From the NCBI GenBank assembly GCA_035939715.1, contig DASZFN010000971.1, forward strand, positions 1 to 10,724: a stretch of DNA of 10,724 nt, read 5' to 3'. A program made the position numbers and the translations under genes. Position 1 is the first letter of the stretch. Each line of letters begins with the position of its first letter. Source of the stretch: Gemmataceae bacterium. GTDB taxonomy: Bacteria > Planctomycetota > Planctomycetia > Gemmatales > Gemmataceae. The notes under the pieces are model-generated. The model saw only the letters and a list, made by a program, of their open reading frames with translations, did not search any database and was not told where the DNA came from. Shown here piece by piece: positions 1 to 10,724 of the stretch.

Positions 1-58
1 GCAGTGACGCTCGGATTTTTGTCGTGTCCGGAGCCTCGGTGCGGTACACTCCCTGGTT

Positions 59-601
59 ATGCAAAGCAAAGCGACGACCGTGGAACAGTATCTTTCCGAA
101 TTGCCGGCGGAGCGGCGGGCGGCGCTGGAAGCCGTGCGCAGCGTTGTTCTGGCCAACCTCGACAAGGATTACGAGGAGGGGATGCAGTACGGCATGATCG
201 GCTATTACGTGCCGCACCGCGTCTTTCCCGCCGGCTATCACTGCGATCCGAAGCAGCCCTTGATGTTTGCCGGGCTGGCGTCGCAGAAGAACCACATGGC
301 GCTCTATCTCATGTGCGTCTATGGTCAGGGGCCGTTGGCCGAGTGGTTCCGCGAGGCCTGGGCGAAGACCGGCAAGAAACTCGACATGGGCAAGGCCTGC
401 ATTCGCTTCAAAAAAGTCGAGGATCTGGCGCTCGACGTGATCGGCGCGGCGGTTCAGCGCGTGCCGGTCAAGAAGTATGTCGACAGCTACGTGGAGCTCA
501 GGCGCATGATGGATGCGCGCACGACGAAAGGTCCGCCTGGAAAGAAGACGCGCGGAAAAGCGGGCAAGCAAGCAGCGAAGCCGGTGCGGAAGAAAGCATA
601 A
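59..601 (+). CDS. DUF1801 (YdhG-like) domain protein with Lys/Arg-rich C-terminal tail
   Basis: 180-aa ORF. The N-terminus TTVEQYLSELPAERRAALEAVRSVVLANL...GMQYGMIGYYVP matches the pattern I recall for the DUF1801/YdhG family. The C-terminus is a basic tail (GKKTRGKAGKQAAKPVRKKA). Ends in TAA at 599-601. No clear Shine-Dalgarno (SD) upstream. Confidence 0.8.
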   Translation: MQSKATTVEQYLSELPAERRAALEAVRSVVLANLDKDYEEGMQYGMIGYYVPHRVFPAGYHCDPKQPLMFAGLASQKNHMALYLMCVYGQGPLAEWFREAWAKTGKKLDMGKACIRFKKVEDLALDVIGAAVQRVPVKKYVDSYVELRRMMDARTTKGPPGKKTRGKAGKQAAKPVRKKA

Positions 602-602
602 C

Positions 603-827
603 TCAGCTTGTGGCCAAGCTCTGTTCAGCGAACTCCAACACAGTTACGACTTGCTCGCGGCCGACGCCTGAAAACCAATCGAGGAAGTCATCGACCGTAG
701 CGCCGTCCTCAAGGTTTTCAAAGAGCGACTTCACGGGCACACGAGTCCCGCGGAATACCCACGCGCCACTCATCTTGTCGGCGGAGCGTTCGACCGCTGC
801 ACAATGACGCCAATCAAGCATCGGCAT
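603..827 (-). CDS. DUF433 domain protein (small HTH-like, antitoxin-type fold)
   Basis: The ORF track gives 603..929. I trimmed it to the internal Met (MPMLDWRHC...) because a GAGGTG SD (complement of 832-837) lies 4 nt upstream of the ATG at 825-827. The sequence GAWVFRGTRVPVKSLFENLEDGATVDDFLDWF carries the DUF433-type GTR(I/V)PV core. Stop is TGA at 603-605. Confidence 0.7.
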   Translation of the reverse strand: MPMLDWRHCAAVERSADKMSGAWVFRGTRVPVKSLFENLEDGATVDDFLDWFSGVGREQVVTVLEFAEQSLATS

Positions 828-962
828 GGAACACCTCAGGTTCATTCGGCAGCCACAAAATGACATTATTACAAGCCGACGACTTGCATGCGAGGGAATC
901 CAGCGGCAGGCCAATCTGATGCTCGTCATCGATTCTGCTACGGCAGCAATGGGAATCAGGCA

Positions 963-2639
963 CTAGGCCGGCAATCGTCCCTTCGCTGACAGCGGAGCGG
1001 CTACAGTCTCCGCAGGCGGGACTGCCGGCCCCGGCTTCACGGAAACCACGGTCGCCTCCTTCTGGTCTGCAGCCTTCTCCGGTGTGAGCTTGCCAAAGAA
1101 ATCGGGCAGCTCCACGCCGCCGATGTCTTTCATGACCTGCATGATGGGCGGCATGGTGCGGGCCAGGCCTTGCAGGAAATGCGACGTGGCATTGGCGCCG
1201 TTGCCGTTCGTGCCGTTTTCCCAGACGACCACTTTATCAAACTTGATCTGCGAAATGGCCTGGGCCGATGCCTGGGTGAGGGCGTCGAGATGCTCGAGCA
1301 AGAGCATTTGGAAAGCCGCCTGGGCGCCGCCGCAGGCCTCGATGATCGAGCGCAGACCCTCGCCTTTCTTGGCCAGGATTTCATATTGACCGCGCGCCTC
1401 GGCTTCCAGCTTGGCGAAGATGGCCTTGGCCTGGCCCTCGGCTTCGATGCGGCGTTTTTCCGCCTCGGCCTCGGCTTCCACGATGACCCTGGCCTTTTCC
1501 GCCTTGGCGGGCGCTTCCACGGAGGCACGGCGCTCGGCCTCGACGCGCTCGGCCTGGGCCAGAGCAGCCTTGGCCATGGCGCGGTTCTGCGCCTCCTGCA
1601 CGGCGGCCTCGGCTTCACGCTTGCGCGTTTCGCCGAGCTTGTAGGACTCGGCTTGCTTGACCTGCAAGGCCGCCTGGGCCGCCGCGACCTGCGCCTGGGC
1701 CTCGTTCTCGCCGACAATGGCTTTGGCATTGGCATCGGCCGTGGCGATGCGCATGGCGCGCTCGGCATCCTTGACCTGGGCATCGCGTTCGTAGCAAGCG
1801 GTTTGCTCGCCGACTTTCTGTTCCTTCTCCAGCTGGGCCACGCGCACCGCTTGCTCGCGCTGCGCCTCGCGCATGCCGATCTCGCGCAGCTTGTGGGCGT
1901 TGGCGACCTGGATGGTCTTCTCGCGGTCGGCCTCGGCAACGCCGATCGAGCCCATTTTTTCCTGCTGGGAGACGTCGATGGCGGCCTGCTGGATAGCCTG
2001 CGAAGCCGCTTTCTTGCCGATCGCGGCAATGTAGCCCGACTCGTCGGTGATGTCGGTGATATTCACATTGATGAGCACCAGGCCGATCTTACGCAGCTCG
2101 GGCTCCAGGGAAGTCAGGATCTTATGCAGGAATTGCTCGCGGTGCCGATTGATGTCCTCGATGCACATGGAGGCAATGACCTGGCGGAGCTGGCCGAAGA
2201 TGATGTGCTCGGCCTGGGTCTTGATGTCCTCGGCGCTCAGCCCGAGGAGGCGGATGGCGGCATTATTCATGACCTCGGTCTCGGTGCCGATGGCCACGGT
2301 AAAAATGCTCGGCACATTGACGCGGATGTTTTCGATGGACAGAGCGCCCTTGAGCGGGATCTCGATCTGGATCGGCTCCAGGTTGAGAAAGGCGTGGTCC
2401 TGAACGAGCGGCCAGACAAACGCCGCGCCGCCGCTGACGCATTTGGCGGCGTCGCCGCGACGCACCTTGCCGAATATGACCAGGACGCGGTTAGGCGGAC
2501 AGCGGCGAAAGCGCTTGGCGACGAACGTCAAGATGCTGAACGCGAACAGCGCCAGCGCCACGACGGCGATGACCAGATAGTGCTCGGCGACAAAGCCGCC
2601 CACAGTGGGAACCCTGGCAAGGAGCGCGGTGTACGACAT
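963..2639 (-). CDS. Flotillin / SPFH (band-7) family membrane-microdomain protein, YqiK/FloT-like
   Basis: 558 aa from the Met at 2637-2639 (MSYTALLARV...), with GGAGG (complement of 2648-2652) 8 nt upstream. It has an N-terminal TM helix (HYLVIAVVALALFAFSILTFV), an SPFH core (VLVIFGKV...LNLEPIQIEIPL...) and a long Ala/Glu/Gln/Arg-rich coiled-coil flotillin region. The length is similar to E. coli YqiK (recalled as about 550 aa). Confidence 0.9.
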   Translation of the reverse strand: MSYTALLARVPTVGGFVAEHYLVIAVVALALFAFSILTFVAKRFRRCPPNRVLVIFGKVRRGDAAKCVSGGAAFVWPLVQDHAFLNLEPIQIEIPLKGALSIENIRVNVPSIFTVAIGTETEVMNNAAIRLLGLSAEDIKTQAEHIIFGQLRQVIASMCIEDINRHREQFLHKILTSLEPELRKIGLVLINVNITDITDESGYIAAIGKKAASQAIQQAAIDVSQQEKMGSIGVAEADREKTIQVANAHKLREIGMREAQREQAVRVAQLEKEQKVGEQTACYERDAQVKDAERAMRIATADANAKAIVGENEAQAQVAAAQAALQVKQAESYKLGETRKREAEAAVQEAQNRAMAKAALAQAERVEAERRASVEAPAKAEKARVIVEAEAEAEKRRIEAEGQAKAIFAKLEAEARGQYEILAKKGEGLRSIIEACGGAQAAFQMLLLEHLDALTQASAQAISQIKFDKVVVWENGTNGNGANATSHFLQGLARTMPPIMQVMKDIGGVELPDFFGKLTPEKAADQKEATVVSVKPGPAVPPAETVAAPLSAKGRLPA

Positions 2640-2690
2640 AGGTGATACCTCCCCGGAAGTAGGACGGATTGGCAATCCGTCCCACAGAAT

Positions 2691-3284
2691 TTAGGCTTCG
2701 GCGACCTCAACGGTTCCGGGGCTGACCACCCCGAGCACAACGACGTCGGCGCCGGTGGGCAGCTCCCGTTGCGCAGTCACCGCTTGATATTCCATGAGCC
2801 GATTTTGCACCTTGACGTGCACCTTGCCCGCGCCGCCTCTTTGGCCGGGGATGGTCAGGTACACCTTGGCCGGGGCGCCGACCGCCCGTTCGATACGGAC
2901 GGAGCCGTCACTTTGCAGCTTGGCCAGGGTTTGCATGACCCAGGCGACCGTCACCATGGCTGCGCCGCCCGCGGCGACGGCGATCGCCAGGGGCAGCAAG
3001 GGTCCCTGCGTGACGCGCGCCGAAGCGGCCACACCGGCCAGGCCGAAGAACAAGAGCGCGGCGACAATGGTGCGAAAGGTCAGCAGCTTGAAAAACCACG
3101 AGCCTTCTTCGTGATGCCCAGGTTGGTGATGAAAGTGGCCGGTCTCGTGCTGCGTGTCGCCGGCGTCATCGGCGTGATCGCCGCCGAGATCGTGATGCCC
3201 GCCCAGGCCGATGAGTGCCAATACGAACTGGCAAAGCATCAAGGTTCCGCCCAGGATCGCACAGATCAGGTAGACGGTTTCCAT
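2691..3284 (-). CDS. NfeD-like / YqiJ-type membrane protein (flotillin partner) with His-rich loop and C-terminal OB-like beta domain
   Basis: 197 aa. It has an N-terminal TM helix, a His/Asp-rich loop, two further hydrophobic helices, and a C-terminal soluble segment (GAPAKVYLTIPGQRGGAGKVHVKVQNRLMEYQAVT...) typical of the NfeD C-terminal OB-fold. It sits 51 nt upstream of the flotillin gene on the same strand, the canonical nfeD-flotillin arrangement. A purine-rich AAGGGG lies 7 nt upstream of the ATG. Confidence 0.75.
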   Translation of the reverse strand: METVYLICAILGGTLMLCQFVLALIGLGGHHDLGGDHADDAGDTQHETGHFHHQPGHHEEGSWFFKLLTFRTIVAALLFFGLAGVAASARVTQGPLLPLAIAVAAGGAAMVTVAWVMQTLAKLQSDGSVRIERAVGAPAKVYLTIPGQRGGAGKVHVKVQNRLMEYQAVTAQRELPTGADVVVLGVVSPGTVEVAEA

Positions 3285-3693
3285 GACTGCACCCCTTGCA
3301 TTGTCTGGCAGGCTGCATGATGGACCGCCGCCAGAGCGCTGTCAACTAGTTTGACGCATGTTTTTCGCCCGGAAATACGCCATTCCAGCGACCGGCATAC
3401 CGTGCGTGCCACCTGTGTCGGTTAATCGGCATCGAGTTGTTCGGACGGCTCGCAGGTTGCAGCCGTATCGTTTCCTTGTTATTCGCTCGGCTAAGTGCCT
3501 GATTTGAGATCCACTCGCATCCGCTTTCATTGCTTTCCTCCAAGCGTCTTATCGCTTCATTCTAGCCGCGATTAGGAACCGGCGAACCCAAGATTCACTC
3601 CCGTCGCGATCGTTCAAACTGTTTCCGCTCTTCCCCGTCTAACTACTGGACGCAATAATCCATGCGCTGAAGTTGCGCGACGCCTGTACATAC

Positions 3694-3698
3694 GGAGG
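3694..3698 (+). promoter_or_regulatory. Shine-Dalgarno (GGAGG) for the alpha-2-macroglobulin gene
   Basis: GGAGG at 3694-3698, 5 nt upstream of the ATG at 3704. Confidence 0.6.
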
Positions 3699-3703
3699 TT
3701 CCC

Positions 3704-6700
3704 ATGCTACAAGGTCGTTTCTCACCCGTGACTCGCGGCAGCCTGGCGATGACCATGCTGGCTGTTGCGGCCGTGGTTTCTCTGAGCCGGCCGGGTAATC
3801 AAGGCGAAGCAGCTTCCGAGAAGCCGGCAGCGGAGTTTGCTATGAAGGGTCATGAGACCTCTGTGGACGTCGGCCAGGAATTCTTTGCCGGCACCTCCGC
3901 GTCCATTCGTTGCGCCGTCCGCGCCGTCAAATCCATCAGCGAAACCGTGCCGCTGCCCGATTCCGAAGTCAATGTGCAACTGCGTGCGAAGGATGGACAG
4001 GCCTTCCCACTGGCGGCCGGGAAGACCGATGCCGGTGGCAATCTGGACGCAACCTTCCGGGTGCCCGAAGTGCCGGCCGGGCAGTACACCTTGGCGGTCG
4101 CCACCCGCTCAACGCTTGGCCAACAAAAGTTGGAACGCACCGTGCAGGTGAAGACCGGCGCGAAGATTCTGCTGGTCACCGATAAGCCGCTCTACCAACC
4201 GGGGCAGATCATGCACATTCGGGCTCTGTCCCTGCGGCCGTTCGACTTGAAGCCGGTGGCCGGCTCGGAGCTGACCTTTGAAGTCGAGGATTCCAAAGGC
4301 AACAAGGTCTACAAACGGACACAAAAGACGTCCGACTTCGGCGTCACCTCGATCGACTTCCAGCTTGCCGATGAAGTCAACATGGGCGATTACCACATCC
4401 GCGCCCTGGTCGGAGATCATCAGACGGACAAAACCGTCACCGTCAAGAAGTATGTGTTGCCCAAGTTCAAGTCGGAACTGTCCGTGGACAAGCGGTTTTA
4501 CATGCCCAAGGAAATCATTCACGCCGATTTGCAGACGGACTATTTCTTCGGCAAACCGGTGGCCAACGGCAAGATAAAGGTGGTTGCCAGCACTTTCGAT
4601 ATCCAGTTCCGCGAGTTTCAAACCTGGGAGGGCCAGACCGATGCGAACGGGCATACCAAGTTTGAAATCAAACTGCCGGATTATTTCGTCGGCCAACCGC
4701 TGCAGAAGGGGGACGCCCTGGTGCGCCTGGAGGCAAAGGTGACGGACACGGCCGATCACATGGAAACCATCAGCAAATCGTACACGGTCAGCGATCAGCC
4801 GATTCGCGTGAGCCTGATTCCCGAGGGCGGCAGGCTGGTGCCCGGCATGGAGAACCGCATCTATGCGGCGGCAATTTACCCGGACGGCAGTCCGGCCGCC
4901 TGCGAGGTCAATCTCTGGATCGGCAGCCAGGCCAAGGATGAGCCGTTTGCTACCGTCAAGACCAACGAAGCCGGGTTGGCGGAGTTCAAGCTGACGCCCA
5001 AGGCGGAGCAGTTGCGGCAAGGTCCGTGGGAACAGAAACCGCTGGAAATGCTGGGCGGCCAGGCCGCCAACGCCTGGGGGCCCAAAATGCTTTTCGATGT
5101 TTTCGTCCAGGTCCGCGACGGCAAGGGCAGCAGCGCTCGCGCGCACGCCGAGATCAACAGCGATCCTCTGGGCGAGAATATCGTCCTGCGGCTCGACAAG
5201 GCGATCTATCGCGCCGGAGACACGCTTAACATGGAAACGCGTTCCTCCGCGGGCTTGCCGACGGTTTATTACGATGTCGTCAAGAATGGCCAGGTGCTCC
5301 TCACGAAATGGCTGGATTTCAAGGACGGCGCCGGACATTACCAGCTCGACCTGCCGGCGGACCTCTTCGGCACGCTGGAAGTGCACGCTTACCAGATGCT
5401 CAGCACCGGCGAGATCATTCGCGATAGCCGCGTGATCTATGTGCAGCCGCGCGACGATCTCAAGATTGCCATCAAGCCGGACAAGGAAGTCCATGTGCCG
5501 GGCGAGAGCGGGCGGATTCATTTCCAGGTGACCGACGCGGAAGGCAAGCCGGCCGCGGCGGCGCTGGGCGTGCTGATCGTGGACGAGGCAGTCTATGCCT
5601 TGCAGGAGATGCAGCCCGGCCTCGAGAAGGTTTACTTCACGCTGCAAGAGGAATTGCTCAAGCCGAAGACAGAGGTCATCTTCAAGCCGCGCGCTTCGAT
5701 CGACACACTGGTGCGCGAGTCTGAGATTCCCGCGGACAAGCAGCAGATCGCCCAGGTGCTGTTGACCTCGGTCAAGCCGAAGCTGCCGAGCCGCTGGCAG
5801 GTGGCGCCGGAGATCGAACGCCGGCAAAAGGTCGAGGAGCAGGTGCAGCAAATCGGCTTCGCCCTGTATAGCTTTGCCGCCAATCAGAATCAGCCAGTGC
5901 TCCGCTACGATGCAGCCGCCAGGCGCTGGGACTTTGACCCGAAGCTGCTGGGGACGGTCCTGAAAGCCCAATATGTGGATGCGGCCGCTCTCAAGAACCC
6001 GCTCGGCGGCCTGTGGACGTTGCAGGACCTGGCCAAACTCGAAAAGGAATTCACCCCCAATCATTTGGCGCGGGCAGTAACGCAAGCGCGGATGCAGCAA
6101 GTATTCTGGACGTTCATCAACTATACGAACGCCAATAAGGGGAACTACTTTCAGAACGGCGAATGGTCCTTCCCCGAAACGGTGCTGACGGCCGCTGCCC
6201 GGAGCCAGCGCCTCGCCGGCTGGTGGCTGAAGGACGCCTGGGGAAAGACGATCAAGCTGGCCAAGCGTGACAAGAAGTCCGAGCACCAGACGGGCTGCAC
6301 GCAACTTGATTACTACGACTTCGTCTCGGCCGGGCCGGATGGAGAGTTCGGCACTGCCGACGATGTGAAACTGCCACCCATGAATGAGTGGCAAAATGCC
6401 ACCTTTTGGTGGAGCAGCGCGGCGCGGCACGGCCAACAGCAAAATTGGCGTAGGCGAGACCTGGCCGGCCGGTGGGGCGGCGGCCCCCGCTTTCGAGGAG
6501 CGGCCTTAGGAGGCATGGGCGGAGGCATGGGTGGCATGAATGCCCCGGGCGCCGCAGCGCCGATGCCCATGGCCGCCTTGCGCATGGAAGTAATGGACAG
6601 AGTTGCGAAGAACGGCGGCGCGGCGAAGCCTGACACCGCTGGCGGCGCCCCACCAGCGACTCGAATTCGCGAGTTCTTCCCTGAGACCATGCTCTGGCAA

Positions 6701-7327
6701 CCCGCCCTCATTACCGATGATCAAGGCAACGCCGAGCTGCCCGTCAGCTTTGCCGACTCCATCACGACGTGGCGGTTGACCGCTTCCGCCTCTTCGCGAT
6801 CTGGGCTGCTGGGCGGCGTGACTGCTCCCCTGCGAGTCTTCCAGGACTTCTTCGTCGATCTCGATCTACCCGTCACGCTGACGCAGAACGATGAAGTCGC
6901 CTTTCCGGTGGCGGTTTACAACTATCTGAAGACTCCGCAAACCGTGAAGCTGGAACTGCAGCGCGAGTCGTGGTTCGACTTGACCGATTCCGCCGACTAC
7001 ACGCGCTCCCTCGAACTTCAGCTCAATGAAGTGACGGCGGTCAAGTTCCGTATCAAGGCCCGGCGCATCGGCGCCCAGCCGCTCCTCGTGAAAGCCTCCG
7101 GCTCCAAGATGTCCGATGCCATCAAGCGGACCATCGAAGTCGTGCCCGACGGCAGCCGCGTGGAAAAGGTCGTGACCGACCGCCTGACGGGAAAGGTCAT
7201 GCAGGTGATCGAAATTCCGGAAGGCGCCATTGCGGACGCCTCCAAGATTCTCGTGAAGCTCTATCCCGGCGTCTTCAGCCAGGTCATGGAAGGGATGGAA
7301 GGCATGCTGCACATGCCGTTTGGCTGA
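3704..7327 (+). CDS. Alpha-2-macroglobulin family protein, N-terminal segment (signal peptide, MG domains, long bait-position insert, A2M domain), ending at the in-frame TGA on the thioester Cys position
   Basis: 1207-aa ORF. It has an N-terminal hydrophobic signal-like segment (MTMLAVAAVVSLSRPG) and repeated beta-rich MG-type modules (e.g. ILLVTDKPLYQPGQIMHIRAL). LIVDEAVYALQE and FFPETMLWQPALITDDQGNAELPVSFADSITTWR are hallmark A2M/C3 family motifs. It ends ...GMLHMPFG-TGA. Confidence 0.9.
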   Translation: MLQGRFSPVTRGSLAMTMLAVAAVVSLSRPGNQGEAASEKPAAEFAMKGHETSVDVGQEFFAGTSASIRCAVRAVKSISETVPLPDSEVNVQLRAKDGQAFPLAAGKTDAGGNLDATFRVPEVPAGQYTLAVATRSTLGQQKLERTVQVKTGAKILLVTDKPLYQPGQIMHIRALSLRPFDLKPVAGSELTFEVEDSKGNKVYKRTQKTSDFGVTSIDFQLADEVNMGDYHIRALVGDHQTDKTVTVKKYVLPKFKSELSVDKRFYMPKEIIHADLQTDYFFGKPVANGKIKVVASTFDIQFREFQTWEGQTDANGHTKFEIKLPDYFVGQPLQKGDALVRLEAKVTDTADHMETISKSYTVSDQPIRVSLIPEGGRLVPGMENRIYAAAIYPDGSPAACEVNLWIGSQAKDEPFATVKTNEAGLAEFKLTPKAEQLRQGPWEQKPLEMLGGQAANAWGPKMLFDVFVQVRDGKGSSARAHAEINSDPLGENIVLRLDKAIYRAGDTLNMETRSSAGLPTVYYDVVKNGQVLLTKWLDFKDGAGHYQLDLPADLFGTLEVHAYQMLSTGEIIRDSRVIYVQPRDDLKIAIKPDKEVHVPGESGRIHFQVTDAEGKPAAAALGVLIVDEAVYALQEMQPGLEKVYFTLQEELLKPKTEVIFKPRASIDTLVRESEIPADKQQIAQVLLTSVKPKLPSRWQVAPEIERRQKVEEQVQQIGFALYSFAANQNQPVLRYDAAARRWDFDPKLLGTVLKAQYVDAAALKNPLGGLWTLQDLAKLEKEFTPNHLARAVTQARMQQVFWTFINYTNANKGNYFQNGEWSFPETVLTAAARSQRLAGWWLKDAWGKTIKLAKRDKKSEHQTGCTQLDYYDFVSAGPDGEFGTADDVKLPPMNEWQNATFWWSSAARHGQQQNWRRRDLAGRWGGGPRFRGAALGGMGGGMGGMNAPGAAAPMPMAALRMEVMDRVAKNGGAAKPDTAGGAPPATRIREFFPETMLWQPALITDDQGNAELPVSFADSITTWRLTASASSRSGLLGGVTAPLRVFQDFFVDLDLPVTLTQNDEVAFPVAVYNYLKTPQTVKLELQRESWFDLTDSADYTRSLELQLNEVTAVKFRIKARRIGAQPLLVKASGSKMSDAIKRTIEVVPDGSRVEKVVTDRLTGKVMQVIEIPEGAIADASKILVKLYPGVFSQVMEGMEGMLHMPFG

Positions 7328-8782
7328 ATGGAGCAGACGTCATCCGCGGCCTACCCGAACATCCTGGCCGTGGATTACCTCAAGAAGGCCCGTGTGGCCT
7401 CTCCTCAGATCCTCATGACCGCGGAGAATTACCTGAACGTCGGCTACCAGAAGCTCCTCACGTTTGAACGGCCAGGCGGCGGCTTTGACTGGTGGGGCAG
7501 CGGCCCGCCCATCGTCTGGCTCAGCGCCTACGGCTTGCAAGAATTCAACGACATGGCCAAGGTCTATCCCATCGACCGCGGCGTCATCGACCGCACCCAG
7601 CAATGGCTCATGAAGCAGCGCGAAGCGGACGGCGCCTGGTCCAACATCGGCGCCACGCACAGCGAAACGATCGCCCAGATGGGCAATCCCAAGCTGCTGC
7701 TGACCAGCTACGTGGTCTGGTCCCTGGTTGATAGCGGCATGCGCATTCCCGAGCTGGAGAAATCGATTAACTATATCCGCAAGCACGTGGACGAGGCGGG
7801 CGACAATGCCTACATCCTCGCGCTGGCTGCCAACGCGCTGGCTGCGTGGGATGCCAAGGACGACAGCACCCTCGTGGTCCTGCAAAAACTGGACAAACTC
7901 AAGGCCGCGAAGCCCGAATGGAAAGCGCTCAGCTTCCCGACGCGAGGCCAATCGCTCAGCTATGCGCACGGCGACAGCCTCACGGTGGAGACCACCGCCC
8001 TGGCCGCCCTGGCCATGTTGAAAACGGACCAGTTCACGAACAGCGTCAACGAAGCGCTGACGTTCCTGGTGAAAAGCAAGCAGTCGAACGGCACCTGGGG
8101 AAGCACGTCGGCGACGATTCTATCGCTCAAGGCCCTGGTCGCCGGCATGAGCGGCACGAAACAGGAAGGCAAGGCCGAGTTTGTTATCAAGGTGAACGGC
8201 AAGGAGGCAGGCAAAGGCGAAGTCACCGAGCAAAACGCCGACGTCCTGCAGGCGTTCGACCTCAAGGAATTCACCCAGCCCGGCCACAACGAAGTCCAGA
8301 TCGATGTGAACGGCAAGACCAACCTTATGTACCAGATCGTCGGCCGGCACTTCGAGCCCTGGAAGCTGCAGCCCGGCATTGCCGGTCAGAAGCCGCCGCT
8401 TGAGGTGACCGTCGATTATGACCGCACCAGTCTCTCGACGGCGGACCTGTTGCGCGCCAAGGCAACCTTACGCTACCATGGCGATCGGCCGACCTACATG
8501 GTGATCGTCGATCTCGGCATCGCTCCCGGTTTCACGGTGGACGCCGGCGATTTCGCGGAAATGGTGAGCCAGAAAAAAATCCAGAAGTTCAGCGTCACGG
8601 CCCGCCAGGTGACCCTCTACCTCGGCGACATCAAGCCGGGCGATGTGAAGACGTTTGAGTACAGCCTGAAGCCGAAATACCCGATCAAGGCCAAGACACC
8701 GGCGACCGTGGCATATGAGTATTACACGCCGGCCAACCAGGCGACGGCTCAACCAGTCGAGTTGGTGGTTGGCGACAGATGA
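3704..8782 (+). CDS. Proposed single alpha-2-macroglobulin gene (1692 codons including one internal UGA): candidate selenoprotein, or else a nonsense-interrupted pseudogene
   Basis: 3704 and 7328 are both congruent to 2 mod 3, so a single TGA (7325-7327) separates the two ORFs. The joined length (1207+1+484) is close to known full-length bacterial A2Ms (E. coli YfhM, recalled as about 1650 aa). The domain order is complete only when the two are joined. Confidence 0.6.
6461..6670 (+). other. Gly/Met/Ala/Pro-rich low-complexity bait-like segment of the A2M
   Basis: GRWGGGPRFRGAALGGMGGGMGGMNAPGAAAPMPMAALRMEVMDRVAKNGGAAKPDTAGGAPPATR lies immediately N-terminal to FFPETMLW, the position of the bait region in characterised A2Ms. 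It contains the tandem DNA repeat ggaggcatgggc/ggaggcatgggt/ggcatg at 6509-6538. Confidence 0.55.
7325..7327 (+). other. In-frame UGA at the thioester-cysteine position of the G-C-x-E-Q motif (candidate Sec codon / nonsense codon)
   Basis: The translation reads PFG-[TGA]-MEQTSS. The family consensus is G-C-x-E-Q (human A2M GCGEQ, E. coli YfhM CLEQ). The Gln partner is retained. Confidence 0.5.
7328..8782 (+). CDS. Alpha-2-macroglobulin family protein, C-terminal segment (thioester domain from x-E-Q onward plus C-terminal beta domain); probably not an independent gene
   Basis: 484-aa ORF in the same frame as 3704..7327, starting MEQTSSAAYPNILAVDYL (continuation of the CxEQ motif). An alpha/alpha-toroid-like TED region follows (GGFDWWGS..., DGAWSN..., NGTWGSTSATILSLKAL), then a C-terminal beta-sandwich region. 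There is no SD within 5-12 nt of the ATG and no signal peptide. True stop is TGA at 8780-8782. Confidence 0.85.
   Translation: MEQTSSAAYPNILAVDYLKKARVASPQILMTAENYLNVGYQKLLTFERPGGGFDWWGSGPPIVWLSAYGLQEFNDMAKVYPIDRGVIDRTQQWLMKQREADGAWSNIGATHSETIAQMGNPKLLLTSYVVWSLVDSGMRIPELEKSINYIRKHVDEAGDNAYILALAANALAAWDAKDDSTLVVLQKLDKLKAAKPEWKALSFPTRGQSLSYAHGDSLTVETTALAALAMLKTDQFTNSVNEALTFLVKSKQSNGTWGSTSATILSLKALVAGMSGTKQEGKAEFVIKVNGKEAGKGEVTEQNADVLQAFDLKEFTQPGHNEVQIDVNGKTNLMYQIVGRHFEPWKLQPGIAGQKPPLEVTVDYDRTSLSTADLLRAKATLRYHGDRPTYMVIVDLGIAPGFTVDAGDFAEMVSQKKIQKFSVTARQVTLYLGDIKPGDVKTFEYSLKPKYPIKAKTPATVAYEYYTPANQATAQPVELVVGDR
7339..7378 (+). other. mRNA hairpin downstream of the UGA (candidate bacterial SECIS-like element)
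   Basis: 7342-7351 (AUCCGCGGCC) pairs with 7366-7375 (GGCCGUGGAU), giving 10 bp (9 Watson-Crick plus 1 G-U) and a 14-nt loop at 7352-7365. Two further pairs (7339-7340 with 7377-7378) follow a 1x1 mismatch. The structure starts 11 nt after the UGA. Confidence 0.4.
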
Positions 8783-8799
8783 AGTGTTGCAGCTAACAT

Positions 8800-9207
8800 T
8801 TAATACTCGAAGGTTCTGAGGGATCGCTGTTTGTCAAACTGGACGACAAAGGCATCGAAGAACCCGTCACGGCCTAACAACAGCGGGGCATCGCCTTCGG
8901 CGAAACAAATTGGAAGAAGAATTTCTTTGCGTGCCTCGGCAACAAAAACTGTAACCTCGTGTAGCCTCGCGAGGACGACGCATTCGTCTCGTTGGGAAAC
9001 GCCTCGGATTTCAGTGTGAATTCCTGCATTCCACGTGAGCCCCAGAAGTTCGCACAGTTTCCGAGGGCCGACACTGGTATCCGCGCCAGAGTCTACGACA
9101 AACAACCTACGGGTTCTTCTGCCCTTCGTTCTCTGAAACGACACATAAAGAACCGGGGTGAGAACACCGTTCTCTTCCAGCAATGCCCATGGTTTCGTGA
9201 ACTTCAT
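8800..9207 (-). CDS. Retropepsin-like (clan AA) single-domain aspartic protease
   Basis: 135 aa. It has the catalytic D-S-G-A signature in hydrophobic context (LFVVDSGADTSV) and the C-terminal LLLGRDGFFDAFVVQFD motif typical of prokaryotic retropepsin-like proteases. Its start codon overlaps the stop of the upstream gene (ATGA, 9204-9207). Confidence 0.8.
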   Translation of the reverse strand: MKFTKPWALLEENGVLTPVLYVSFQRTKGRRTRRLFVVDSGADTSVGPRKLCELLGLTWNAGIHTEIRGVSQRDECVVLARLHEVTVFVAEARKEILLPICFAEGDAPLLLGRDGFFDAFVVQFDKQRSLRTFEY

Positions 9208-9482
9208 CGGTAGACAATTCGTCCAGGTCTTTCTAAACGCGCCACCACAATTCTATCCTGATCAATGTCGCCCAGGTTTTTGTAGAGGTCCTCCATCGTA
9301 TCCCCGAAGGCAACAATCTGGCAGTCCTTTGCAGCGATCCACTTACCCCGATACTGGCGCAGAATGTCGGATGGCAGGTGGGTAAGCCAGTCAGCAGTGG
9401 AATCGGTCGCGCGGATGATCTCTTCTTCCTCCGGGGTCGGATGCCAATCCTTGATGATCGCCTTGGTAGTCTTTCTAATCAT
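9204..9482 (-). CDS. Small protein resembling DUF5678-type partners of retropepsin-like proteases
   Basis: I trimmed the 124-aa track ORF to the Met at 9480-9482 (MIRKTTKAIIKDW...), which has GGGAGG 6 nt upstream. The longer form would overlap the upstream DUF433 gene by 65 nt. The C-terminal half (YRGKWIAAKDCQIVAFGDTMEDLYKNLGDIDQDRIVVARL) matches the Y-x-GKW-[VI]-A...V-A-x-G-D pattern I recall for DUF5678. The family assignment is from memory, not from a search. Confidence 0.6.
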   Translation of the reverse strand: MIRKTTKAIIKDWHPTPEEEEIIRATDSTADWLTHLPSDILRQYRGKWIAAKDCQIVAFGDTMEDLYKNLGDIDQDRIVVARLERPGRIVYR

Positions 9483-9513
9483 GGGTTGCCTCCCGCGCCG
9501 CGAGTTTATCAAC

Positions 9514-9795
9514 CTATTCGTCATCCTCTTCATTCGCGCGAATTGCCTGTTCGATTTCCCGCGAGTTATGCCGAGCATACTCCCGCGCTGCTGCCAGGTC
9601 TGCCCGCGTTAGCGAGGGGTAGTTGTCAAGTATCTGTTGCTCCGTCAACCCCTTTCCCTTTAGGGAATTCAGCAACCATACCATGATTCGCGTGTTTCGG
9701 ATACACGCGTCGCCACCGCAGACTCCGGCTGTCTTCCGAATCAGCGGCTCTCCGGCCGCGTCTACCGCTACTGCTTTTGACTCTAAAGCGCTCAT
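9514..9795 (-). CDS. DUF433 domain protein
   Basis: 93 aa. GVCGGDACIRNTRIMVWLLNSLKGKGLTEQQILDNYPSLTRADLAAAREYARHN is a good match to the DUF433 pattern (GxCGGxPxIxxTRIxV...YPxLxxxDIxAAxxY). A GAGGA SD lies 7 nt upstream of the ATG. It has an acidic C-terminal tail (EEDDE). Confidence 0.85.
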   Translation of the reverse strand: MSALESKAVAVDAAGEPLIRKTAGVCGGDACIRNTRIMVWLLNSLKGKGLTEQQILDNYPSLTRADLAAAREYARHNSREIEQAIRANEEDDE

Positions 9796-9908
9796 GCGAC
9801 GTTCCTCTAATTGCCCTTCTCCAGCGCTAGGATATCAGAAAAGCAATAAGGACGCCAAGTTGCCTTGACGTCCCTTGAAATTCAGTAGTGGCTAAGTCCG
9901 TGTTGATT

Positions 9909-10226
9909 TTAGGCAGGGCTAATCCTCAGACTGCCTGCACTATGGAACACGGCAAACCGCCCGAAGCAACCAAGGTTCCGTAACGCCGTGGCGGCTGCTT
10001 TAATTCTGGCCGGAAAACGAGATTCATCACGCTCCCATTCTGCCTCAAACTTATCGCGGTTGTTTCCGTCGATAGTGACTCTGACATCTCCGGTATAACC
10101 GTCCCTTGGCGCCTTAAATGCAAGCTCGACCAACCGGCCAAGCCTAGCGTCTCGCATGCCTGACTTGATGGCCTTCTCACACGGCGCGACAAATCTAGAC
10201 TGCTTCACGTTAAAGCGAATCTTCAT
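9909..10226 (-). CDS. Hypothetical protein (105 aa), no recognisable family
   Basis: The ORF has an AGGAGA SD 8 nt upstream of the ATG at 10224-10226 and a balanced, non-shadow amino-acid composition. It lies 39 nt downstream of the EF-G-like stop on the same strand. I recognise no motif. Confidence 0.55.
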   Translation of the reverse strand: MKIRFNVKQSRFVAPCEKAIKSGMRDARLGRLVELAFKAPRDGYTGDVRVTIDGNNRDKFEAEWERDESRFPARIKAAATALRNLGCFGRFAVFHSAGSLRISPA

Positions 10227-10265
10227 GGCAAAGTCTCCTGGGCGAATTCGGACGGGATGTAGTAC

Positions 10266-10724
10266 TTAGCTCGCCGCCCGCAAATCCGCCAGCTCTTCCT
10301 TCACCGACGCGTAATGGCTCGGCTCCATGCTGAAGCTGGCCGTGCCGCTGGTGAAGTTGCGGAGTTCGCTCGTATAGCCGAACAGCTCGGCCAGCGGCAC
10401 GTAGGCGTGCAACTGGCAGCGGCCTTTTTCCAGGCTGGAGTCGAGGATCTCGCCGCGCCGCCGGCTGACGTCGCGCGTCAGGTCGCCGATGTACTGGCCG
10501 GGGGCGTGCACGACCACGTTCATGATCGGCTCCAGCAACACCAGACCGGCTCTGGCTTGGGCGTCGCGGAAGCACTCCATGGCCGCCAGCTTGAAGGCGT
10601 CCTGGGAGCTGTCCACTTCGTGCGACTTGCCGTCGAAGAGCGTCGCCTGGATATCCACGCACGGGAAGTTGTACTTGGCGCCCTTGGCAGTCGCCAGGCG
10701 GAAGCCCGCCTCGACCGCCGGGAT
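10266..10724 (-). CDS. Elongation factor G family GTPase, C-terminal part (domains IV-V); 5' end lies beyond the window
   Basis: The frame is open to the window edge (IPAVEAGFRLATAKGAKYNFPCVDIQATLFDGKSHEVDSSQDAFKLAA...LLEPIMNVVVHAPGQYIGDLTRDVSRRRGEI...). It aligns by eye to the EF-G domain IV/V motifs (YHEVDSS, LLEPIM, GD(V/L)xxRRG). The divergence from canonical FusA suggests an EF-G paralog. The M shown in the track at 10658 is an internal GTG (Val). Confidence 0.85.
   Translation of the reverse strand: MPAVEAGFRLATAKGAKYNFPCVDIQATLFDGKSHEVDSSQDAFKLAAMECFRDAQARAGLVLLEPIMNVVVHAPGQYIGDLTRDVSRRRGEILDSSLEKGRCQLHAYVPLAELFGYTSELRNFTSGTASFSMEPSHYASVKEELADLRAAS

Follow-up and report, generated by a model that had tools for sequence, protein, structure and literature searches.

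A pseudopilin-like composite insert at the bait position of a planctomycete alpha-2-macroglobulin-family protein

Proteins of the alpha-2-macroglobulin (A2M) family are the textbook example of a spring-loaded trap, whose trigger is the stretch joining one half of the macroglobulin (MG) domain MG6 to the other. This slot holds the bait in A2M, and the anaphylatoxin (ANA) domain together with the convertase site in complement. The bait regions of A2M proteins are known to be hypervariable, and the ANA domain of C3 helps to hold the native conformation. We analysed a 10,724-nucleotide stretch of DNA (the window) from a Gemmataceae bacterium (assembly GCA_035939715.1, contig DASZFN010000971.1, positions 1 to 10,724), which encodes a protein of this family with an unusually long slot. 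By profile comparison, the slot contains two mutually homologous modules, one of which is clearly homologous to GspG, the major pseudopilin of type II secretion systems (T2SS).

Anatomy of the slot

On its plus strand, the window has a single long gene, made of two open reading frames (ORFs) that lie in the same frame and are split by a single TGA; the whole protein is about 1690 amino acids (aa) long. ORF1 matches the Pfam families MG2 (88.2 bits), A2M (75.1), A2M_BRD (44.7) and MG3 (29.1), all over cutoff, and ORF2 matches TED_complement (131 bits, profile positions 31–310, from residue 2) and A2M_recep. An AlphaFold2 model of ORF1 searched with Foldseek retrieved C3, CD109, C5, CVF, A2ML1, A2M, TEP1 and ECAM, with E-values from 1e-44 to 1e-33 over about 1150 columns. 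The protein is therefore a member of the A2M/TEP superfamily by both domain content and structure. Its closest solved relatives are of the eukaryotic type (CD109, C3, A2ML1 and A2M) and come before ECAM.

We defined the slot as the stretch between LIVDEAVYALQE and FFPETMLWQP, that is, between Pfam A2M_BRD (ORF1 residues 495–633, profile positions 3–140 of 140) and Pfam A2M (PF00207, residues 995–1085). The original prediction, made from the DNA letters, had described an insert of about 355 codons at the bait or anaphylatoxin position, starting at 5613. Translation of positions 5570–6710 gives exactly 355 codons, so the length stands, while the start is one base out of frame and moves to 5609 (slot 5609–6673). 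The position in the protein also holds, with the two Pfam domains bracketing the slot and the downstream flank aligning to the (R)xxFPE[TS]W motif in the CD109, C3, A2ML1 and human A2M chains. The slot is coding and conserved and not a chance ORF, since homologues are 40–79% identical over it.

The bait domains of A2M, A2ML1, CD109, TEP1 and ECAM occupy the same place between the halves of MG6, from a VDxxV strand to FPETW, and likewise include a flexible, hypervariable stretch. They differ in size and content. CD109 is the only solved relative in which we measured the slot, at about 92 aa (8s3o_A, from the end of VDKSV at 617 to HFPETW near 710; the upstream alignment is weak and motif-based). 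The slot is thus far longer here, as had been predicted, and reaches about 670 aa in relatives. Solved members of the family are without the two autonomous pilin-fold modules described below.

Alignments of 19 and of 115 homologues, with column statistics, divide the slot into three parts (Table 1; residues are numbered within the insert). The linker begins with 20 nearly invariant residues (MQPGLEKVYFTLQEELLKPK), whose entropy of 0.14–0.17 bits is on par with that of the MG6 strands, and continues with a variable stretch (aa 21–40, entropy about 1.55) that is modelled with moderate confidence. Residues 42–271 are moderately conserved and show hardly any indels. The last part, from aa 272, is a tail with an entropy of 2–3 bits and a column occupancy of 0.3–0.8, rich in indels and in glycine (18%), alanine (17%), arginine (10%) and proline (9%). 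Its length varies from 68 to 112 aa among the 115 homologues, with a median of 92, and it runs into a conserved R-x-R-E-[FY]-FPET.

The same three parts appear in the predicted structure. We modelled ORF1 residues 37–1207 in context with AlphaFold2 and the 115-sequence alignment. The predicted local distance difference test score (pLDDT) was 56–73 for aa 1–40, 84–96 for aa 42–271 and 29–59 for aa 272–354, the last being predicted to be disordered. A model of the insert alone, from 14 sequences, agreed with the context model, with pLDDT above 88 at aa 70–268. The original prediction had spoken of a folded, partly helical module in a slot that is not low-complexity for most of its length, and had quoted two peptide segments of it. 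Both segments are present in the slot, some 270 aa are ordinary sequence with only the last 85 or so of low complexity, and the confidently predicted module lies directly upstream of the disordered, hypervariable stretch.

Pilin-like modules and their distribution

In the predicted secondary structure there are two repeats, in each of which short strands and helices come after a helix of 26 residues. Module A comprises a short helix and strand, this longer helix, a beta hairpin and further short helices. The hidden Markov models of the two halves match each other, and in hhalign module A (aa 62–148) aligns with module B (aa 146–268) with a probability of 97.7% and an E-value of 2.2e-12 over 61 columns. 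The two modules are thereby shown, at the level of profiles, to be mutually homologous products of an internal duplication, module A being a truncated copy of module B that is without its calcium loop.

To GspG, module B is clearly homologous by sequence profile. The Pfam T2SSG family (PF08334) matches 12 of 42 diverse module-B segments (best E-value 3e-5), and a profile of module-B segments aligns with E. coli K-12 GspG in hhalign with a probability of 97.3%, an E-value of 1.6e-11 and 40% identity over 42 columns. In this alignment, DAWG…VSAGPDGEFGTADDV of the window faces DPWG…LSAGPDGEMGTEDDI of GspG. Foldseek placed GspG structures on top (3g20, 3gn9 and 4lw9), with E-values that were not significant. 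The pilin head fold, in which the C-terminal half of helix alpha-1 lies on an antiparallel sheet, is found in the modules of the slot. As in the head domain of GspG/PulG/EpsG, a long helix packs on a small sheet, and the slot also has a DPWG-like strand and a SAGPDGxxGTxDD calcium loop.

This loop is represented in module B by SAGPDGEFGTADD. Among 42 diverse members, D209, W211, G212, S240, G242, P243, D244, D251 and D252 are invariant or nearly so. In PulG and OutG, calcium is bound by D117 and D125, and potentially by D124 (PMC13081927). These ligands and D244, D251 and D252 of the insert are spaced alike, as D-x6-DD, and because of this and the conservation of the motif, it is reasonable to expect that module B binds calcium. 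A profile match outside the family concerned the same motif: P0121, an SdrD-B-like repeat protein of 4137 aa, gave 22 matches to the SAGPDGxxGTxDD segment. We rejected it as a second home of the module, as only a short calcium-loop-like motif is in common; at motif level, the pseudopilin calcium loop resembles the calcium loops of SdrD B-repeats.

The modules differ from pseudopilins in their setting, being internal to a larger protein and tandemly duplicated. We found neither a prepilin leader nor a hydrophobic N-terminal helix when reading the sequence, and no N_methyl match in Pfam; what comes before the long helices is polar (…SRWQVAPEIERRQKVEEQ…). On these grounds the modules are head domains only, and not pseudopilins.

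No curated family covers the module: Pfam and NCBIfam searches with the insert alone gave nothing meaningful, an NCBIfam TsaB line (E-value 0.03) being noise, and a search of Protein Data Bank sequences with the insert profile gave no match up to an E-value of 10. Literature searches found no work joining a pseudopilin with a macroglobulin and nothing relevant on the bait regions of planctomycete A2M proteins; the sole match, a preprint on the CAGE complex, was unrelated. The architecture is new for a well-known protein family.

The insert is present in all 119 of the closest homologues of ORF1 (57–98% identity), with a slot of 340–408 aa, and when used alone as a query it found only A2M fragments. 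When 1.84 billion cluster representatives were searched with a profile, 543 matched, 219 of them below 1e-10. In long representatives whose N-terminus is complete, the module occupies about residues 600–1000 of an A2M-like protein, and the divergent representatives that we checked still have MG2 or the full set of A2M domains. Slots of 323 to 670 aa with one to four detected modules occur among the representatives. All 35 genomic loci recovered come from metagenome-assembled genomes of Gemmataceae, Gemmatales or other Planctomycetota. Since the insert is common to all close homologues and to the long representatives, we conclude that it is an unannotated feature that defines a large A2M subfamily of planctomycetes, and no peculiarity of this gene. 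The original prediction had named a length universal in the subfamily together with a known fold as grounds for discarding its idea. The insert is indeed universal; its fold is undescribed for A2M proteins, yet identifiable as GspG-like.

Several homologues break off in or near the insert, some of them in the Gly/Ala-rich tail (P0005, P0013, P0014, P0015 and P0032, on very long ENA contigs of 100 kb to 2 Mb). Extra stop codons within the insert were considered and rejected: judged from the proteins, the C-termini of the broken homologues look frameshifted, and clean homologues stop only at the TGA of the thioester position. The broken homologues may be frameshift errors of long-read assemblies rather than pseudogenes. 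In another case, P0019 (581 aa), a protein of the metallo-beta-lactamase fold (Lactamase_B_2) runs straight into VLIVDEAVYALQD and module A and then diverges; the contig, of 3.8 kb, appears to be chimeric, or the fusion of the genes an artefact.

Possible roles of the slot

On balance, we think it probable that the slot is a composite bait-region domain and not one long bait, built of a linker, two rigid, calcium-stabilised pilin-like modules and a bait tail. With the highest entropy, many indels and a length of 68–112 aa, the tail is the part most likely to be the actual bait; we infer this from its being the fastest-evolving and most indel-rich part, directly before the second half of MG6. 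A protease cutting the disordered tail would split the protein just upstream of that half, much as convertase cleavage does in C3. The modules would sit where C3, C4 and C5 have their anaphylatoxin domain. There they would most likely serve as a rigid, calcium-stabilised and protease-resistant body that holds the long bait out into the solvent, and may pack against the MG ring, so that the spring-loaded native state lasts until cleavage of the bait. As the hydrophobic N-terminal helix is absent, they would not be expected to form filaments.

Several points weigh against this proposal. How the modules would dock on the MG ring, how exposed they would be and whether they act as a latch are matters of conjecture, and the binding of calcium is read from motif conservation. 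Pfam T2SSG gives no match to the window's own segment up to an E-value of 10; the homology to GspG is seen only profile-to-sequence, because that segment falls under the Pfam thresholds. Residues 21–41, which are also variable and moderately confident, might be cleaved instead of the tail or in addition to it.

The ANA domain of C3, C4 and C5 is alike in that it, too, is compact and folded, occupies this slot and sits directly upstream of both FPESW and the activating cleavage site. It is not homologous to the insert, which has no match to Pfam ANATO (PF01821) and a single, non-conserved cysteine, as against six, and whose alpha/beta pilin fold differs from the disulfide-locked helical bundle of ANA; no furin-type chain-processing site is evident either. 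The tandem modules might be an independently acquired functional analogue of the anaphylatoxin domain, a calcium-dependent latch that is freed or re-exposed after the bait is cut and gains an activity of its own, such as binding to a partner in the cell envelope or in a secretion system. We regard this as quite improbable. If it were true, activation would yield two functional products, as in C3, and the number of modules (one to four detected) would tune this step between lineages.

The original prediction had suggested that the module could be a decoy or recognition (exosite) domain that recruits particular target proteases, or other proteins, to the bait and the trap. A module that is folded, adjoins the candidate bait and differs in copy number between lineages would fit a specificity element. 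However, the residues conserved across the family belong to the fold and to the calcium loop (DxWG, SAGPDG and DD), with no obvious ligand surface; no protease or partner gene is conserved beside the A2M gene in the window and at two related loci; and A2M-type traps generally operate without target recognition. Although a variable loop of PulG and OutG affects secretion specificity (PMC13081927), we consider recruitment of targets unlikely.

Pilin heads also form the contacts between subunits in filaments, as in the PulG and OutG pilus structures (PMC13081927), which raises the idea that the modules act in self-association, into dimers or tetramers as in human A2M, or in docking to a pseudopilus or envelope structure, and have no part in presenting the bait. 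The protein has a signal-like N-terminus and no evident lipobox, so that another means of localisation is plausible. Yet the hydrophobic helix that drives polymerisation is missing, in line with the lack of an N_methyl match, and neither the window nor the two related loci contain genes for a T2SS or a pilus; this role is quite unlikely in our view. There is virtually no chance that the flanks were mis-assigned and enclose ordinary MG domains, which the original prediction had listed as a way to be wrong, or that all 355 aa are one unstructured bait. Apart from the low complexity of the last 85 or so residues, nothing was found in favour of this, and it is already refuted: the Pfam boundaries bracket the slot exactly, the AlphaFold2 model predicts long helices and small sheets and no MG beta-sandwich, and about 230 aa are confidently folded and align with GspG.

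The thioester position and the surroundings of the gene

The TGA between the two ORFs falls at the cysteine of the CxEQ thioester motif. ORF1 ends in ...MLHMPFG, just ahead of this position, and the TED profile picks up at the residue right after the TGA, with TED and the receptor-binding domain in the same frame. At 34 loci, the window included, the codon was TGA in 13 and TGC or TGT in 21, and never TAA or TAG; the TGA loci besides the window are L001, L002, L010, L016, L019, L020, L024, L026, L028, L029, L032 and L035. In about 100 of the 119 closest homologues, the gene call ends exactly at the TGA (...RLPGG or ...RMPFG), and 15 read CFEQ or CMEQ. The xEQ residues are conserved, and the full CxEQ feature is present only if the TGA is decoded as selenocysteine. 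We rejected a split gene that restarts at an ATG after the TGA: 5 of the 13 TGA loci have TTY as the following codon, where no such restart is possible, and the second ORF cannot be accounted for in this way.

Downstream of the TGA lie two conserved hairpins, a candidate selenocysteine insertion sequence (SECIS). In the window, the hairpin region has a minimum free energy of -28.3 kcal/mol (z -2.4). A hairpin starting 11–12 nt past the UGA, together with a second, invariant hairpin, was found at all 13 TGA loci and at no Cys locus, with mean minimum free energies of -27.1 and -16.7 kcal/mol, respectively. Pairing held in 93.6% of cells, versus 28–45% in slid controls, and one compensatory pair was present. 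Third-codon-position identity downstream of the TGA was 0.75, versus 0.51–0.55 in controls. The consensus for a bacterial SECIS is an apical loop of 3–9 nt, with a G among its first two nucleotides, placed 16–37 nt after the UGA (PMC13188914). The loop of the hairpin in the window starts 24 nt after the UGA, which fits this spacing, and misfits the loop rule of the same source, with 14 nt beginning with UA. Rfam gave no match over the whole window. A 2026 review of prokaryotic selenoproteins (PMC13188914) does not mention macroglobulins or thioester proteins, and none were found in our other literature searches.

Because relatives have either TGA or TGC/TGT at this codon and the TGA loci have a conserved downstream hairpin, the thioester position of this A2M protein probably holds selenocysteine, which would give a bond of the selenoester type.

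Table 1. Features of the A2M-family gene in the window.
Feature	Positions	Strand	Remarks
ORF1, 1207 aa	3704..7324 (7327 with the TGA)	+	signal-peptide-like N-terminus, MG domains, slot, MG7, start of CUB
Upstream flank LIVDEAVYALQE	5573..5608	+	final strand in the first half of MG6, where A2M_BRD ends; entropy 0.12, nearly invariant in 115 homologues
Slot part 1, linker, insert aa 1–41	5609..5731	+	pLDDT 56–73 in the context model
Slot part 2a, pilin-like module A, insert aa 42–148	5732..6052	+	pLDDT 84–96
Slot part 2b, pilin-like module B, insert aa 146–271	6044..6421	+	homologue of the GspG head domain, by profile
SAGPDGEFGTADD motif, candidate Ca2+ loop, insert S240–D252	6326..6364	+	aligns with SAGPDGEMGTEDD of E. 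coli GspG
Slot part 3, hypervariable tail, insert aa 272–355	6422..6673	+	pLDDT 29–59; ends at TRIRE
Downstream flank FFPETMLWQP	6674..6703	+	start of the second half of MG6; alpha'NT-like motif
In-frame TGA, candidate selenocysteine codon	7325..7327	+	context PFG-[TGA]-MEQTSS; thioester Cys position of CxEQ
ORF2, same-frame continuation, 484 aa	7328..8782	+	TED and receptor-binding/MG8 domain
Two conserved hairpins, candidate SECIS	7337..7399	+	14-bp stem 7337–7380; GGCC-CGUGU-GGCC 7387–7399

Elsewhere in the protein, a comparison of window positions 3704–3850 with homologues P0179–P0296 shows that most homologues of about 1300 aa have a further N-terminal domain of about 95 aa before KAHETS, which is missing from the window protein and from P0178, P0192, P0196 and P0208. 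With tblastn, no remnant of this domain was found upstream in the window, and there seem to be two N-terminal variants within the family. The truncated ORF bears the NCBI annotation "MG2 domain-containing protein".

On the minus strand at 963–3284, upstream of the A2M gene and divergent from it, lie a gene of the SPFH/Band 7 (flotillin-like) type and one for a small membrane protein. The same pair, with a YqiJ_N/NfeD-like small membrane protein, is present at the locus of P0187, a Cys-type relative that is 63% identical, and is absent at that of P0208, so that synteny is partial. Neither the window nor the two related loci have PBP1C, protease, T2SS or pilus genes, or any conserved partner gene, beside the A2M gene, and the surroundings therefore give no functional clue.

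Our results describe a large branch of A2M proteins from uncultured planctomycetes that fills the trigger slot with repeated domains recruited from a T2SS pseudopilin. The slot tolerates whole folded domains, and evolution has used that more than once. As the module is without a curated family, it is currently invisible to annotation. The subfamily offers a natural system in which to ask what a folded domain beside the cleavage site contributes. The TGA may prove of greater interest than the insert, and a probable selenocysteine in the same genes gives a second reason to express members of the family and solve their structures.

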